DNA from: a virus
Taxonomy: Duplodnaviria; Caudoviricetes
Length of the DNA stretch: 64,000 nucleotides
IMG/VR virus record: IMGVR_UViG_3300042314_000891
Span: 1 to 64,000 of that record
Direction: 5' to 3' (one strand)
Of this stretch, positions 50,301 to 55,715 are shown one piece after another (positions within the stretch are counted from its first letter, which is position 1; every line of letters begins with the position of its first letter). Position numbers and translations under genes: made by a program. A model generated the notes under the pieces. That model was not told the origin of the DNA. It worked only from the letters and a program-made list of their open reading frames with translations, and did not search any database.

Positions 50301-50686
50301 GGGGATGACCGGCTTTTGACAGGTATGAAGACTGGTTGTATTGATGCAAGTAAGGTTAGATGGAAACCTTTGAAGACCTATCAAACAATAAGTGCAAACG
50401 TAGAATTATCTACAATGACGTTCGAAGATGCTATGGCATGGATGAACTCATTCGATTACGCAGTAGCTGCCTAATCAATCCCGCATCACTCGTGGGACTT
50501 AAAAAGAAGTGAACAATTTAAGGTCTCGTTTGAGGTTCTACCTATTAAAGTGAATCTTCCACATTTGAGAGTGGCAATGGCAAAATAGAAACTCTATATT
50601 TTTTCAGTTTAGAAAAATTGAATAAACTTGTGAACGATTTACATTAGAAACTTATTTGGACTTGGGTTCGAATCCCAACATCTCCA
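50301..50686 (+). ncRNA. ssrA: tmRNA
   Basis: GGGGATG/CATCTCC-A acceptor with G3:U70; T-arm TTGGGTTCGAATCCCAA; tag frame 50394-50474 ANVELSTMTFEDAMAWMNSFDYAVAA*. Confidence 0.95.
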
Positions 50687-50688
50687 CA

Positions 50689-50880
50689 AAAAATAAATGA
50701 GAAATCATTTGGATATATGAAAAAAGTTTCGTATATTTGTATCATAATAAATCGCGGGGAGGATGTTGGTTTCCCACCGGTCTCATAAGCCAGGTCTACG
50801 ATAGTTCGATTCTGTCTCCCGCAACCAAAAATAAATGAGAAATCATTTGGATATATGAAAAAAGTTTCGTATATTTGTAT
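50689..50880 (+). repeat. Perfect 54-bp direct repeat carrying a promoter (50689-50742 and 50827-50880)
   Basis: AAAAATAAATGAGAAATCATTTGGATATATGAAAAAAGTTTCGTATATTTGTAT twice, flanking a tRNA. Confidence 0.9.
50753..50827 (+). tRNA. tRNA-Met(CAT), initiator-like and divergent
   Basis: C1/A72 mismatch, CTCATAA loop, encoded CCA; weak D and anticodon stems. Confidence 0.7.
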
Positions 50881-51078
50881 TATAGAAAATGAGGTTAGTA
50901 TGCCGGTGTGGAGAAGTCCGGTGTTAAGAGGACCCGAGAGGTAGAAATACCATCCCACTACTCATCCAACAAAAAAAAAGTAAAAATAATTTTGATATAT
51001 GGAAAAAGTTTCGTATATTTGTATTATAGATTTGAGACCAATAGGTGATGAAAGATACTCGGTTAATCAAATTAAAAA

Positions 51079-51090
51079 TGTTCTTTAAAA
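51079..51090 (+). promoter_or_regulatory. boxA-like antitermination element
   Basis: TGTTCTTTAAAA between a promoter and the giant ncRNA. Confidence 0.5.
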
Positions 51091-51095
51091 TATAA

Positions 51096-51931
51096 GCACA
51101 TAGTAGACTAGTTCTACATAGTGTACATCGGCCGCCTATGGTCGTGAAATAAACTACGAAAGTAGGATAAAGTGAATCATTTGGTTTAAGTGATTTGCGG
51201 CTTCGAAAGGAGCTTGAGTAGGCAAGTGGAATATCATTTCACCTTTAGTATTGAGGGTAACACTGTAAAGAGGGTGGTGAAATGACTGGGCTAAAGTAGA
51301 TAGTTCAGTTGAGGTGGGAACACCAATAAGAATAATCCATAGAGTTATTGCGAGAAACTGAAACTTAATCCCTTTCAACAATTGCGTGATTCAATATTAG
51401 AGTTTGCTTAAAACCGAAAGGTAAGATAAAGTACGAGTGGTGTCGTTATTATCCTTACTCTTCACCTACCAAGGTAGGAGTTATGAAGCAAACTTAAAGT
51501 ATGGTGTTAGGGATAACACATCGAGTAGTTCAGTATTCTGTTGTTCAAAAGATAACGGAGCAGGTTGGCGAACCACTACTTGAAACCATCTACAAACCAA
51601 ACTCAATTTGCCGGTTAGTGCAAACTATAAACAAAAAGAGCAAAAGTGTTCGTCAGTTGCAAACGAAAGGTGCGTACATAGTAGGGAGTTGTTCCTTGCC
51701 ACGATACCTCCGCAAGAGGTCTGTGATTCTTTCGAAAAACTTCTAACACCGCAAGTGTGAATCTGTTCGGCAGAGTAGAAGAAGCGGAGTAAAGAGAGAG
51801 TAGTTTGTAACTTTATGAGTGGTTGGCTTAACTAACCCGCATTGAATCGGTACTATCCAAAAGATAGTGGAAAAGTTGGGAAACAATAATCCAACGAAAG
51901 CTGGTTCTTTTACGTGAGTATTCTCATCCGT
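51096..51931 (+). ncRNA. Large structured RNA, probably GOLLD (boundaries approximate)
   Basis: About 830 nt with raised GC and no credible ORF; many GNRA hairpins (CTAC-GAAA-GTAG, ACC-GAAA-GGT, CCTCC-GCAA-GAGG, CACC-GCAA-GTG); adjacent to tRNAs; resembles my recollection of the GOLLD 5' end. Confidence 0.7.
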
Positions 51932-51941
51932 AATAATATAA

Positions 51942-52015
51942 GCGAGATTGGTGTAATGGTAGCACATCGGCCGTCCAGGTCGGAGGAGGGGGTTCAATTC
52001 CTTTGTTTCGCTCCA
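51942..52015 (+). tRNA. Non-canonical tRNA-Gly(TCC) with G33
   Basis: GCG/CGC-U73-CCA Gly acceptor; loop CGTCCAG; T-stem GGGGG/CCTTT. Confidence 0.75.
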
Positions 52016-52018
52016 TAA

Positions 52019-52091
52019 GCGGAGAAAGTGTTCCGGTAGCATGTGTACATTCCTGTACAATGAGGTGGTTCGATTCCATCTCTCCGCTCCA
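52019..52091 (+). tRNA. Non-canonical tRNA-Gly-like with 6-nt anticodon loop
   Basis: GCGGAGA/TCTCCGC-U-CCA; TGTAC-ATTCCT-GTACA. Confidence 0.75.
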
Positions 52092-52176
52092 AAATTTAAA
52101 TTATAAAATAATAACCAATATTACTATTTTTAACTTAAAATAAAAAAAAGTTATATATATTAAAAGAAAAAAGAAA

Positions 52177-52320
52177 ATGAAAACTCTTAACCTACATACG
52201 ATAGCTTATCAACCGACATCAAATTTGATGTGGGCAGGCAATCGCGTGTGTGATTTTAGTTCGAAAGGAATTAAAAATCAGTTAGGGGCAACAATATTAA
52301 ACGATGTAGACTTGGGATAA
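52177..52320 (+). CDS. Putative attenuator leader peptide, 47 aa (not in ORF track)
   Basis: MKTLNLHTIAYQPTSNLMWAGNRVCDFSSKGIKNQLGATILNDVDLG*; A-rich Bacteroidota-type start context; contains a copy of the terminator 3' arm. Confidence 0.75.
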   Translation: MKTLNLHTIAYQPTSNLMWAGNRVCDFSSKGIKNQLGATILNDVDLG

Positions 52321-52347
52321 AACCAAACTACATACTTAAATTAAAAC

Positions 52348-52379
52348 AACCCCTGACTCAAAAAGTTAGGGGTTTTTTT
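52348..52379 (+). terminator. Intrinsic (attenuator) terminator before the tRNA operon
   Basis: AACCCCTGACT-CAAAA-AGTTAGGGGTT followed by T run. Confidence 0.9.
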
Positions 52380-52393
52380 ATGTTTAAAAATAA

Positions 52394-52465
52394 GTTGATG
52401 TGGCGCAGTGGTAGCGCAGTAGACTGTTAATCTATTGGTCGTAGGTTCGAATCCTACCATCAACG
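52394..52465 (+). tRNA. tRNA-Asn(GTT)
   Basis: Cloverleaf; loop CTGTTAA. Confidence 0.92.
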
Positions 52466-52473
52466 CAAGAATA

Positions 52474-52486
52474 AGTTCTTTGACAT
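52474..52486 (+). promoter_or_regulatory. boxA-like antitermination element
   Basis: AGTTCTTTGACAT, similar to rRNA spacer boxA. Confidence 0.55.
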
Positions 52487-52497
52487 AATGGTGAAAT

Positions 52498-52570
52498 AGT
52501 GGGTTAGCTCAATTGGTAGAGCGCCGTCTTTACATGGCGGATGTTGGGGGTTCAAGTCCCTCACTCACTA
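52498..52570 (+). tRNA. tRNA-Val(TAC)
   Basis: Cloverleaf; loop TTTACAT. Confidence 0.9.
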
Positions 52571-52578
52571 CAATAGAT

Positions 52579-52652
52579 GTCCGTATGACGTAATTGGCAA
52601 CCGTGCTGGTTTTAGAAACCAGATTGTGTAGGTTCGAATCCTACTATGGACA
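52579..52652 (+). tRNA. tRNA-Leu(TAG), short variable loop
   Basis: CTGGT-TTTAGAA-ACCAG. Confidence 0.85.
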
Positions 52653-52691
52653 CAGGTAGTTCCCGATGCTACATATCAAAATCGGACTTGG

Positions 52692-52768
52692 GGAGTAGTG
52701 GCAGATGAGGTTCATTGCGCTGGACTGAAAATCCAGAGGAACAGGTTCGATACCTGTCTGCTCCACCA
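52692..52768 (+). tRNA. tRNA-Phe(GAA)
   Basis: CTGGA-CTGAAAA-TCCAG; CCA. Confidence 0.92.
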
Positions 52769-52770
52769 AT

Positions 52771-52843
52771 GAACTCGTAGCTCAATTGGTAGAGCACTAC
52801 ACTTTTAATGTAGGGGTTTTGGGTTCGATTCCCAACGGGTTCA
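52771..52843 (+). tRNA. tRNA-Lys(TTT)
   Basis: CTACA-CTTTTAA-TGTAG. Confidence 0.92.
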
Positions 52844-52849
52844 CAATAT

Positions 52850-52922
52850 AGGGTGGTATATCAATGGTTAGATTACTTGCTTTGGGAGCAAGAGGCTGTG
52901 AGTTCGAGTCTCGCTCACCCTA
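52850..52922 (+). tRNA. tRNA-Pro(TGG)
   Basis: CTTGC-TTTGGGA-GCAAG. Confidence 0.9.
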
Positions 52923-52925
52923 CAC

Positions 52926-52999
52926 AGAGATATAGCTCAATTGGTTAGAGCACCGACCTGATACGTCGGGGGTTATAGGTTCGAGTCCTATTTTCTCTA
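52926..52999 (+). tRNA. tRNA-Ile(GAT)
   Basis: CCGAC-CTGATAC-GTCGG. Confidence 0.9.
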
Positions 53000-53069
53000 C
53001 ACTTTTTCAACTTTTAGATAAAGGTTGGAAAATTTTTTGAAGGTAATTTTTTACTTTGGAAATAAATAC

Positions 53070-53140
53070 ATGTCTTTGGTGCAATGGTAGCATATCGGTC
53101 TCCAAAACCGCAGATGAAAGTTCGAATCTTTCAGGACGTG
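53070..53140 (+). tRNA. tRNA-Trp(CCA)
   Basis: CGGT-CTCCAAA-ACCG. Confidence 0.9.
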
Positions 53141-53144
53141 CAAT

Positions 53145-53216
53145 GGTTCTATGGTGTAATGGATAGCACCTGACACTACGGATGTCAAAGTTGGAGTTCG
53201 AGTCTCTATGGAACTA
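53145..53216 (+). tRNA. tRNA-Arg(ACG)
   Basis: TGACA-CTACGGA-TGTCA. Confidence 0.92.
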
Positions 53217-53222
53217 CATTAT

Positions 53223-53293
53223 GGTGAATTGTCCGAGTGGTTAGGGAGTGCTCTGCAAAAGCATTTACATTGGTTCGAATCCAATATTCACCT
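53223..53293 (+). tRNA. tRNA-Cys(GCA)
   Basis: GTGCT-CTGCAAA-AGCAT; U73. Confidence 0.92.
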
Positions 53294-53294
53294 C

Positions 53295-53371
53295 GTTGTT
53301 TATAGTGTTAATGGTCAGCACGTCAGTTTGTGGTACTGATAGTATGGGTTCGAATCCCATTAAACACCCCA
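53295..53371 (+). tRNA. tRNA-His(GTG)
   Basis: TCAGT-TTGTGGT-ACTGA; G-1:C73; CCA. Confidence 0.9.
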
Positions 53372-53374
53372 TAT

Positions 53375-53447
53375 TGCGTGGCTTGGTGGAAAAGAGCTAT
53401 CTCTCATAAGGAAAGCCAAGTGGGTTCGAACCCCACACACGCAACCA
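53375..53447 (+). tRNA. tRNA-Met(CAT), divergent
   Basis: CTCATAA loop, intact T-arm and ACCA end; atypical D arm and weak anticodon stem. Confidence 0.6.
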
Positions 53448-53525: not shown

Positions 53526-55715
53526 ATGAAAAAGTTACAAATCACTCTAATAGGTATTTTCCTATTATTAGGTTGTGCAAAGGAAGAAGCACTACAACCA
53601 ACAATAATTGATACTCCACCATCTGTATTCACAGAGGATGCAATCAATGTTACACTAAAATCTGCATTTGTTGTAGGTAAAGTACAAGATGTTGCATATT
53701 CACCTACAATTGAACGTGGGTTTATTTATGCAAGTAATGCAGATGTGAATGGATATGGTAATACCATTAAATTAGATACGAATATTACAATATTCAAATC
53801 ACAACTAACCAAACTAACCCCCAATAAAACTTATTACTATAAAGCATACGCCAAAAACAAATATGGTACTGCTTATGGTGAATTGAAGAATTTTACAACG
53901 GGAGATTATCTTTTACCAACTTTAACTACCGATAGTTTAGGCAATATAACTCTTACATCGGTAAAACTATATGGTAATATCACAGATGATGGCGAAACGC
54001 CCATATTAAAGCGTGGATTCTGTATTAGTACTAACCCAACACCAACAACTACCGATAGCACATTCAATACGGGTAATGGGATGGGTTTATTTGATTTAGT
54101 TGTAATCAAACTAAAAGCAGGTACAAAGTACAATGTTCGTGCCTTTGCTACAAATGCTATGGGTACATCCTATGGTAAAGAAATCAGTTTTTCAACATTA
54201 GATTATAAACTACCTACAATCCAAACAAATTCAGTAACGGATATTGGATTAAATGTAGCAACATTAAGTGGGAATGTAAAAGATTTAGGTAGAGGTGAGT
54301 TAAAGGAACGTGGGATAGTTTTATCCAAATCACAAAACCCAACTATTGATGATATGAAATTCAAATCATCGGTTACGGATTTGGGAGAGTATAAGATTGT
54401 AGTTACTAAATTAGAAGTAAATACTAAATACTACGCAAGAGCATATACGCAGAATGAAGCAGGTATTGTATATGGTGATGAAGTAAATTTCTCAACATTA
54501 GATTATACATTTGCAAAAATATCTACCAACGATATTGGGAATATCTCATTTAGGAGTGCAAGAATTGGTGGTGAGGTTACAAACGAAGGTAATACACCCG
54601 TAACTGAAAGAGGTGTAGTAATTAGTAGAGAGAAAACACCTACAATTTCAGATAGAAAACTTACAGTAGGAAATGGTTTGGGTGGATATATGGTAGATGT
54701 AAATGAACTGATACCTAATTCAACATACTATATTAGAGCATATTGTATAAACTCAAAGGGTATAGTTTATGGTAATGAACGAAATTTCAGAACTTTGGAT
54801 GATACACCTCCACCAGCTCCAATAGTATCTATACCTACTATACCATCATCGCCTACAACACCACCACCAACAACATTTGTACCTGGACCTGTTGTAACAA
54901 CACCACCACCAACACTATCGGCATTGCCGGAGTATGTGAGTGTACCTGATAGTAGATTTGAACAGGCACTAATAGATAGAGGATACGATTTTGTATTGGA
55001 TGGTAGAATAAGAACTGCACCAATCGCAAATGTAACTACAATTGAGATATTAGATAATATGAATATCAGTAATATCAGAGGTATAGAAGCATTCCCTAAT
55101 CTACAACGATTGCGTATTATTCACAATCAAATTAGTAGTGTAGATTTATCTAAAAATCCTAACTTAACTTGGGTTTCCTTTTGGGATAATAAATTGACAA
55201 GTATTGATGTGAGTTCATTGTATAAGTTAGAGTATTTTGGAGCAGGTGATAATGATATTGTAACATTTGATGTTTCCAGAAATTACAATCTAAATGAATT
55301 GGATTTTGGTAATACGGAAGGTAGAGCTGGATATGGAACAACTCGAGGTGTAACATCTATTGATATTTCACACAATCCAAAAATGCGCAGATTATATATG
55401 CAAAACAATAGATTGACAAGTTTGAATATTAGTAGAAATAAATTGATTGAAGATGTTTGGGCGCATGATAATAAAATTGAATCTTTGGATTGTAGTAATA
55501 ACCCGAATTTATCATTTATAATAATGTGGAATAATAATTTAAGATACTTAAATATAAAAGGAACATATCAGGGTGGAGTGCCAGCACGTTTATATACAAA
55601 AAATAACCCTAATTTAGCAGAAATTAAAGTTACAAATGCAAGTAATATTTTAGCAAGAAGACAATTTTGTGAATATTGTTTCGTAATAGATAGTTGGACA
55701 AAATATGTAGAATAA
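53526..55715 (+). CDS. Lipoprotein with four FN3-like repeats, Pro-rich linker and leucine-rich repeats
   Basis: Lipobox LLLGC; repeated YYxRAYxxNxxGxxYG; LxxLxxxxNxLxxxDxSxN repeats. Confidence 0.85.
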   Translation: MKKLQITLIGIFLLLGCAKEEALQPTIIDTPPSVFTEDAINVTLKSAFVVGKVQDVAYSPTIERGFIYASNADVNGYGNTIKLDTNITIFKSQLTKLTPNKTYYYKAYAKNKYGTAYGELKNFTTGDYLLPTLTTDSLGNITLTSVKLYGNITDDGETPILKRGFCISTNPTPTTTDSTFNTGNGMGLFDLVVIKLKAGTKYNVRAFATNAMGTSYGKEISFSTLDYKLPTIQTNSVTDIGLNVATLSGNVKDLGRGELKERGIVLSKSQNPTIDDMKFKSSVTDLGEYKIVVTKLEVNTKYYARAYTQNEAGIVYGDEVNFSTLDYTFAKISTNDIGNISFRSARIGGEVTNEGNTPVTERGVVISREKTPTISDRKLTVGNGLGGYMVDVNELIPNSTYYIRAYCINSKGIVYGNERNFRTLDDTPPPAPIVSIPTIPSSPTTPPPTTFVPGPVVTTPPPTLSALPEYVSVPDSRFEQALIDRGYDFVLDGRIRTAPIANVTTIEILDNMNISNIRGIEAFPNLQRLRIIHNQISSVDLSKNPNLTWVSFWDNKLTSIDVSSLYKLEYFGAGDNDIVTFDVSRNYNLNELDFGNTEGRAGYGTTRGVTSIDISHNPKMRRLYMQNNRLTSLNISRNKLIEDVWAHDNKIESLDCSNNPNLSFIIMWNNNLRYLNIKGTYQGGVPARLYTKNNPNLAEIKVTNASNILARRQFCEYCFVIDSWTKYVE

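Follow-up and report, generated by a model that had tools for sequence, protein, structure and literature searches.

How a phage might control the supply of its own transfer RNAs (tRNAs) is the question raised by this locus. To our knowledge, the regulation of phage tRNA genes is hardly known. Even the purpose of these genes has been under debate for decades, and codon compensation and escape from tRNA-targeting defences are the proposals named in the accessible text of one report (PMC10264068). In the virus record IMGVR_UViG_3300042314_000891, an 85.8-kb IMG/VR entry with a CheckV completeness of 39%, a short open reading frame (ORF) is followed by an intrinsic terminator and then by a compact array of tRNA genes. 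We analysed the first 64 kb of this record (the window; AT-rich, with a G+C content of 30–41%) and compared this leader element with its relatives. The locus combines a short ORF, three alternative RNA pairings that covary, and a position directly before tRNA genes. The reading we favour, with reasonable though limited confidence, is that the element is a ribosome-mediated (leader-peptide) transcription attenuator of the trp style, through which a large freshwater phage gates the first of its tRNA blocks.

All features of the leader and of the array that it precedes lie on the plus strand. The leader ORF (52177–52320) has 47 codons and an ATG start. As the initial annotation described, it packs 19 different amino acids into its first 27 codons and 27 different triplets into its first 29, with three codons each for Leu, Thr and Ser; the whole peptide lacks Glu. 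Stretches with at least 19 amino acids in 27 codons account for 21 of 50,551 stop-free windows of the 85.8-kb record and fall at seven loci, including the leader, and five Markov-simulated genomes contained 0–7 such loci each. Taken by itself, the ORF of the window exceeds chance in its diversity only in part: at least 27 distinct codons out of 29 is rare among genome windows (45 of 47,870), but it is an extreme-tail value expected by chance. Across the full ORF of 47 codons, a count of 19 amino acids does not stand out (P = 0.20 among open frames matched in composition). Since the diversity seen in the window is the value to be expected when this much DNA is scanned, the case rests on the relatives. 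The GC-rich codons pointed out earlier are also present, but they can be explained without codon selection, because they are located in the conserved RNA helices P2, P3 and P4.

Downstream of the ORF, the predicted terminator (52348–52379) was recovered with a stem at 52348–52374 of 11 pairs, a loop of five and a T-run reaching 52379. Its 5′ arm is designated region 3 (52350–52358) and its 3′ arm region 4 (52364–52372). Region 2 (AGTTAGGGG, 52280–52288, codons 35–38) is, as had been noted, a copy of region 4, and these two copies, starting at 52280 and 52364, are the only ones in the window; shuffled sequences are expected to hold 0.42 copies, and 6 of 100 shuffles had two or more. Region 2 can pair either with region 3 or with region 1 (CTCTTAAC, 52184–52191, codons 3–6), which forms the 5′ side of helix P1. 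Regions 1 and 2 enclose an inner arm (52193–52252), formed in the RNAalifold consensus by P2 (52193–52200 with 52245–52252) around hairpin P3 (52213–52233), and hairpin P4 (52254–52276), whose inner pairs are kept with G-U/A-U changes and whose outer pairs are not conserved. Hairpin D (52304–52333), located between regions 2 and 3 and carrying the stop codon (52318–52320) in its loop, was likewise confirmed as part of the minimum-energy fold of 52150–52395, a fold with z = −6.1 that none of 200 shuffles equalled. The 2:3 duplex of the window has an energy of −15.4 kcal/mol, matched by 0.07% of random 80-nt genome zones.

Region 1 and the A-run preceding it (52180–52191) are also complementary to region 4 and its U-tract (52364–52379). 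When the full leader of the window type is folded, the structure of lowest energy contains a 1:4 and a 2:3 pairing. The 1:4 pairing may represent a second way of holding off the terminator, or it may be a side effect of region 2 copying region 4.

Relatives were sought at both the protein and the DNA level. A word-indexed protein search returned the peptide itself and two clusters at 83–87% identity, and a profile search over 1.84 billion representatives added more distant short ORFs sharing the start MKTLxLHT. Because protein searches detect intact ORFs only, we used a degenerate DNA pattern that is blind to the ORF and covers only the first 23 nt. Family membership required this pattern and a terminator-like end 140–300 nt further on, so that members without a terminator would be missed. 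Metagenomes contributed 80 examined loci out of 119 matching stretches. The family comprises 17 viral-contig loci, at least 34 metagenome loci and the window, giving at least 52 loci and 40 distinct sequences, which form 11 clusters at 60% peptide identity and are 16–57% identical between clusters. Alignment figures given below refer to 18 of the 40 sequences (alignment A7), drawn from those 31–53-codon subfamilies that align well; the 50–53-codon subfamily was analysed by anchored extraction only.

Among the 80 metagenome loci, 44 were dropped as unrelated coding regions that lack the terminator pattern and, in the six representatives checked, tRNAs; 36 of them are gut-type, six belong to a 16-codon type also present in an actinobacterial genome and two to a 15-codon type. 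Two loci cut by contig ends (L047 and L080) were left out. Prokaryotic genome contigs gave six pattern matches, none with a terminator or tRNAs and none in the family. In the phage GenBank collection only individual tRNAs were matched and no relative of the leader was found, and a search of viral contigs with an exact 20-mer and a central degenerate pattern returned only the five to seven contigs already known.

The ORF is conserved in these relatives. Its frame is open in all 40 distinct sequences, over lengths of 31–53 codons, and frames 2 and 3 contain 3–7 stops each in the 17 sequences counted; at the composition of the family, a random frame of 47 codons would be open with P = 0.037. Differences in length are all in frame and consist of whole codons. 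The peptide itself drifts: 33, 34 and 35 columns vary at the first, second and third codon position, respectively, the changes are evenly spread, and codon differences summed over all sequence pairs are 3,658 synonymous versus 16,899 nonsynonymous (a nonsynonymous excess of 4.6 to 1). Judging by this substitution pattern, the peptide sequence is not under ordinary purifying selection. A frame kept open while its sequence drifts is the signature of a regulatory leader peptide, and neither of a small protein nor of an untranslated RNA; the ORF is presumably translated. Across the family the stop codon lies between 2 nt before and 29 nt after region 2, so a ribosome finishing translation would stand on or beside region 2.

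All four regions recur in every family member, with region 1 at codons 3–6, region 2 within the ORF, and regions 3 and 4 as the 5′ and 3′ arms of the terminator. Duplex energies range from −10.0 to −17.8 kcal/mol for 2:3, from −6.1 to −13.8 kcal/mol for 1:2 and from −13.4 to −19.4 kcal/mol for 3:4. The 18-sequence alignment has 93.1% of cells paired in P1 (1:2), 97.9% in P3, 93.2% in the terminator (3:4) and 89.5% in the antiterminator (2:3). Five of the eight pairs of P3 change on both sides. Hairpin D is kept with quite different sequence in relatives of the L011/L015 type, and 3 of its 10 pairs change on both sides.

Conservation and covariation of the antiterminator, both proposed as checks on the attenuator, are evident from the arms themselves. 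Sequences with GAGG in region 2 have CCTCT in region 3 in 16 of 16 cases, versus none of the 24 other sequences. Region 4 follows this change in only 6 of the 16, the other GAGG-type sequences keeping G-U, and region 1 reads CTTTAAC in 15 of the 16, a C-G to U-A replacement matching region 2. Region 3 therefore tracks region 2 more tightly than it tracks region 4, which argues that the 2:3 pairing is functional. In one relative (L025), a one-base insertion in region 2 is matched by one in region 3 and one in region 4. When cognate 2:3 duplexes were compared with those of non-cognate arm types, the cognate duplex was the stronger in 388 of 520 cases.

The position before tRNA genes is constant as well. 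A same-strand tRNA lies downstream in 51 of 51 loci with enough flanking sequence; in 48 of these the first downstream gene is tRNA-Asn(GTT), separated from the T-run by 0–25 nt (median 7). A gap this short leaves no space for a separate tRNA promoter, an arrangement that the initial annotation had named as refuting its reading. Its other refuting condition open to sequence analysis, a lack of ORF and antiterminator conservation in relatives, was likewise decided in favour of that reading. In the window, the gated array (52394–53371) encodes tRNAs for Asn, Val, Leu, Phe, Lys, Pro, Ile, Trp, Arg, Cys and His. Two details of the initial annotation had to be corrected here: ARAGORN finds 11 tRNA genes and not twelve, the twelfth tRNA-like stretch (53375–53444) scoring 18.6 bits, below the gathering score of 29, and the first tRNA begins 14 nt after the T-run, not 15.

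Upstream of the leader stands a promoter-like conserved block (52127–52161), made of a GAAAA-type box and a TATA(T/C)(A/T)TAT box whose end is some 15 nt from the ATG. Divergent relatives retain the block but have wholly different sequence further upstream; the large non-coding GOLLD RNA lies upstream in the window, and in other relatives the leader comes after other sequence. Since the block persists while its upstream surroundings differ, the unit consists of promoter, leader, terminator and tRNA array, with the block acting as the putative promoter. It is separated from the start codon by a spacer (52162–52176) that has no Shine-Dalgarno sequence and is A-rich in all relatives, with variable sequence.

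Short ORFs of variable peptide sequence and conserved maximal codon diversity had been proposed as the feature to look for before tRNA arrays in related phages. At the level of amino acids, and despite the drift described above, 33 of the 40 peptides include all 20, six include 19 and one, of 31 codons, includes 18. For open frames of the family's composition, the probability of reaching 20 is 0.011 at 40 codons, 0.020 at 43, 0.036 at 47 and 0.082 at 53, and 2 of 80 control frames do so. When the nine invariant columns are fixed and the rest redrawn, 7 of the 11 cluster representatives are complete versus 0.77 expected, and all 11 exceed their own null mean in amino-acid number; as the clusters share ancestry, these figures overstate independence. 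Residues present as a single copy occupy differing columns across clusters (three for Cys, two for Tyr, several for Asp and Arg). There is no run of regulatory codons: 17 amino acids are present in all 11 representatives, in 1–7 copies each, and the only ones ever missing from a family peptide are Ala, Asp and Glu. Asn and Thr exceed the expectation from composition about 1.7 times, and Arg, Tyr and Val are under-represented. From these comparisons, amino-acid completeness is probably under selection, and the description of the ORF as a 'pan-amino-acid' leader is supported at the sequence level, the 'pan-codon' version of the initial annotation being a conjecture as regards the relatives.

We propose the following mechanism. 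The transcript would start about 10–15 nt before the AUG, from the dedicated promoter-like block, and the leader ORF would be translated as RNA polymerase proceeds. Pairing of region 2 with region 1 would close the structured domain P1–P4; its alternative pairing with region 3, the 5′ arm of the terminator, would prevent the terminator from forming. With no ribosome loaded, P1 would keep region 2 and the terminator would form. A ribosome keeping pace would reach the end of the ORF and stand on or beside region 2, with the terminator forming in this case too. A ribosome lagging within approximately the first 30 codons would leave region 2 free to pair with region 3, and transcription would enter the tRNA genes. 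Since one or a few codons in the leader stand for each of (nearly) all amino acids, a delay in decoding any one of these would increase the output of tRNAs, and their arrival would in turn end the stall, as in a negative feedback loop.

Masked-ribosome folding agrees with the stall range of about 29 codons suggested earlier. This is equilibrium folding with the footprint masked and region 4 not yet made, and it pairs region 3 with region 2 (P 0.6–0.9) for P-site codons 1 to about 30; the pairing is lost when the ribosome covers region 2. The original observation of the element is confirmed, and its first interpretation as a leader-peptide attenuator is supported. Under this interpretation the leader would be translated, control would be kinetic, and the response would run from slow translation to read-through; termination by default and the outcome at the stop codon would follow from kinetic and steric arguments and from the analogy with trp. 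A further step is to regard the leader as a universal probe of decoding speed with closed-loop tRNA supply, in which any tRNA shortage, including cleavage by anticodon nucleases, would switch on replacements. We put this forward tentatively and consider it rather doubtful; that the element would sense a loss of tRNAs, and would thereby be tied to anticodon nucleases, is inferred here as it was in the initial annotation.

Several points weigh against the attenuator. Region 2 prefers region 3 to region 1 at equilibrium even without a ribosome, before region 4 exists, and once region 4 is present the 3:4 pairing wins in most relatives wherever the ribosome sits. Equilibrium folding gives no default-off state, so the model needs kinetic control, and which way control runs is beyond the reach of such folding. 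With a footprint of −12/+14 nt, region 2 of the window type stays uncovered when the ribosome is at the final sense codon, where any blocking of 2:3 would have to be steric. Read-through, termination and translation alike are deduced from sequence. All 52 loci have the terminator because the family criterion demanded one; the 40 sequences are related, so counts drawn from them are not independent, and the GAGG/CCTCT change may have arisen just once. Nor is completeness strict: Glu is absent from the dominant variant, to which the window belongs. The window and three other distinct sequences of its cluster lack this residue, L045 and L046 have 19 amino acids and L101 has 18. Finally, the other two frames of the same sequences contain 13–20 different amino acids, mostly 16–18, and the excess in frame 1 is therefore about two residues.

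The same folding results could be accommodated by a translation-dependent switch of another logic, in which any initiating ribosome melts P1 and frees region 2 for the antiterminator. Amino-acid content would then be incidental, and the element would report ribosome availability or transcription–translation coupling rather than slow decoding. Region 1, at codons 3–6, does fall inside the initiation footprint, 2:3 beats 1:2 at equilibrium whenever region 2 is uncovered, and the 19 amino acids of the window over 47 codons are, as noted, unremarkable (P = 0.20). However, melting P1 does not need an ORF that reaches or crosses region 2, as it does in 40 of 40 sequences, nor a stop codon held between 2 nt before and 29 nt after that region. 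The maintained length of 31–53 codons and completeness above the conditional null (seven clusters versus 0.77 expected) also speak against it, and we regard simple melting of P1 as unlikely.

An open frame in 40 of 40 sequences, with 3–7 stops in the other frames (17 counted) and all length changes in frame, is harder still to reconcile with a translation-independent RNA switch. Here the P1–P4 domain would bind a ligand or an RNA, for example uncharged tRNA, and the ORF would be a by-product. The strong structure (z = −6.1), the covariation in P3 (5 of 8 pairs) and the conservation of the first 23 nt at synonymous sites too speak for such a switch. The middle of the domain, around P4, differs between the 43–47-codon and the 50–53-codon subfamilies and is therefore a poor fit to a conserved binding pocket, and no Rfam family scores above chance in 52092–52393. 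Over this interval nothing matched at gathering score, and the low scorers lie mainly at the terminator end. Hits to Thr_leader (23.6 bits), the trpB motif (25.9 bits) and BTnc005 (22.6 bits) were far below their gathering scores and were taken as chance. We consider an RNA switch of this kind improbable.

Least probable of all, and in our view hardly credible, is an ordinary small protein gene with a somewhat leaky terminator lying by chance before a tRNA array: gene callers in public data do annotate the ORF as a hypothetical protein, but it shows no third-position excess and 4.6 nonsynonymous differences to each synonymous one, its peptide identity between clusters falls to 16–30% while ORF, four regions and position are kept, region 2 covaries with a terminator arm, and the short gap before the tRNAs could not accommodate a separate promoter.

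The leader and its array form part of a larger island of RNA genes, arranged in the order transfer-messenger RNA (tmRNA), GOLLD RNA, two odd tRNA-like genes, leader element, 11 tRNAs, a protein gene and 13 tRNAs. The tag predicted for the tmRNA (50301–50687) is unusually long, with 26 residues, and ends in YAVAA; the tmRNA tag of a related phage (L011) has nine residues, GEYNYAIAA. Between the tmRNA and the GOLLD RNA, repeated promoter-like blocks stand before several small RNA genes; at 50644–51100 they appear as near-identical stretches of about 60 nt, seen as repeated reverse-frame peptides. The GOLLD RNA (Rfam RF02032; 51521–51930) is full-length and scores 292.6 bits versus a gathering score of 150. 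It is followed by a weak tRNA-Gly (51942–52015) and by a tRNA reported as '???', with a short anticodon loop (52019–52091). The segment 51934–52126, which holds these two odd tRNA-like genes, is an insertion or deletion, being exactly absent from a relative of 97–99% identity, G001 (L002), where the promoter block of the leader directly abuts the GOLLD RNA. Between the first and second tRNA blocks stands the gene of a 729-residue predicted lipoprotein (53526–55715) with repeated beta-rich modules and a leucine-rich-repeat-like C-terminal part.

RNA data were available as contigs (Logan) from four freshwater metatranscriptome runs; such contigs show no transcript ends. One RNA-library contig (X1 record 6, depth 5.7) spans 52127–52419 and crosses the terminator by 40 nt, with DNA carry-over possible. 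A second (X2 record 12, depth 4.6) ends 20 nt beyond the terminator and was not counted as bridging, and the interval 51968–52109 has no RNA-contig cover and is uninformative. The coverage is thin, bridging is at most a weak hint, and we draw no conclusion on expression from these runs. GOLLD-matching contigs reach depths of hundreds to thousands in the four runs versus about 5 for the leader, and contig depth cannot rank genes.

The closest architectural parallel is with the attenuators of amino-acid operons in enterobacteria, namely trpL, hisL, leuL, pheL, thrL and ilvL. Like them, the phage element has a short translated leader (presumed in our case), alternative 1:2, 2:3 and 3:4 pairing of four regions, an intrinsic terminator directly before the regulated genes, and a stop codon that would put the finishing ribosome at region 2. 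In contrast to them, it has no codon run for a single amino acid, 18–20 amino acids occurring once or a few times each; it is longer (31–53 codons), with the extra structured domain P2–P4 between regions 1 and 2; it precedes tRNA genes rather than genes of biosynthetic enzymes; and it shows no sequence homology to them. The pheL system is the subject of one report (PMC3082878). The architecture found here is that of a classical leader-peptide attenuator minus one defining feature, the run of regulatory codons, and with a new target, tRNA genes.

T-box riboswitches regulate synthetase or amino-acid genes by direct binding of uncharged tRNA and work without an ORF. The phage element resembles them in a choice between terminator and antiterminator that would report the state of the tRNA pool, but it has no Rfam T-box match and its ORF is conserved. 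The GOLLD RNA shares with the leader a phage-borne location beside tRNA genes in the same island; as a large non-coding RNA in its own right, it does not belong to the switch.

As far as the accessible part of the relevant report extends, the nearest functional analogue is the upstream ORF (uORF) of mycobacterial whiB7, which is coupled to antitermination and for which a response to many kinds of amino-acid starvation, and to tRNA and tRNA synthetase knock-down, is reported (PMC10274678). The same text presents this uORF as a general sensor of stalled translation whose response is set by its coding sequence, which is alanine-enriched, and which controls a transcription factor (PMC10274678). 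The phage leader differs from what is described there in its even composition, in having tRNA supply as its output, and in its unrelated sequence and host; Ala makes up 4.2% of residues in family leaders, 1.2 times the null, so a whiB7-type composition is not found. Ribosome stalling in leader ORFs also alters downstream expression in vmlR (PMC9226507) and topAI-yjhQ (PMC12121999). According to the portions of these reports available, what those leaders sense is a ribosome with bound drug at particular codons or in particular contexts, and the genes under their control confer resistance or encode toxins, whereas nothing in the phage leader points to antibiotics. Full-text searches of the literature, with subscription journals largely outside their reach, found no attenuator before tRNA genes and no leader containing all amino acids.

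Should the leader indeed act as a probe of decoding speed, it would be the first attenuator known to regulate tRNA genes, and it would provide a built-in sensor of, and counter-measure to, tRNA-targeting immunity. The tRNA shortage that it would sense could arise from host shut-off, from codon-usage mismatch or from tRNA-cleaving host defences. If translation speed is the signal for tRNA production, the classical rule of 'one amino acid, one operon' would widen to take in any amino acid and the whole decoding set, and a stretch of about 200 nt would constitute a compact natural sensor of general decoding speed, usable as a reporter. The hypothesis that phages carry tRNA genes to meet demand would also become directly testable. 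Our analysis points to a lineage of large freshwater phages in which tRNAs would be made on demand, with translation speed as the signal.

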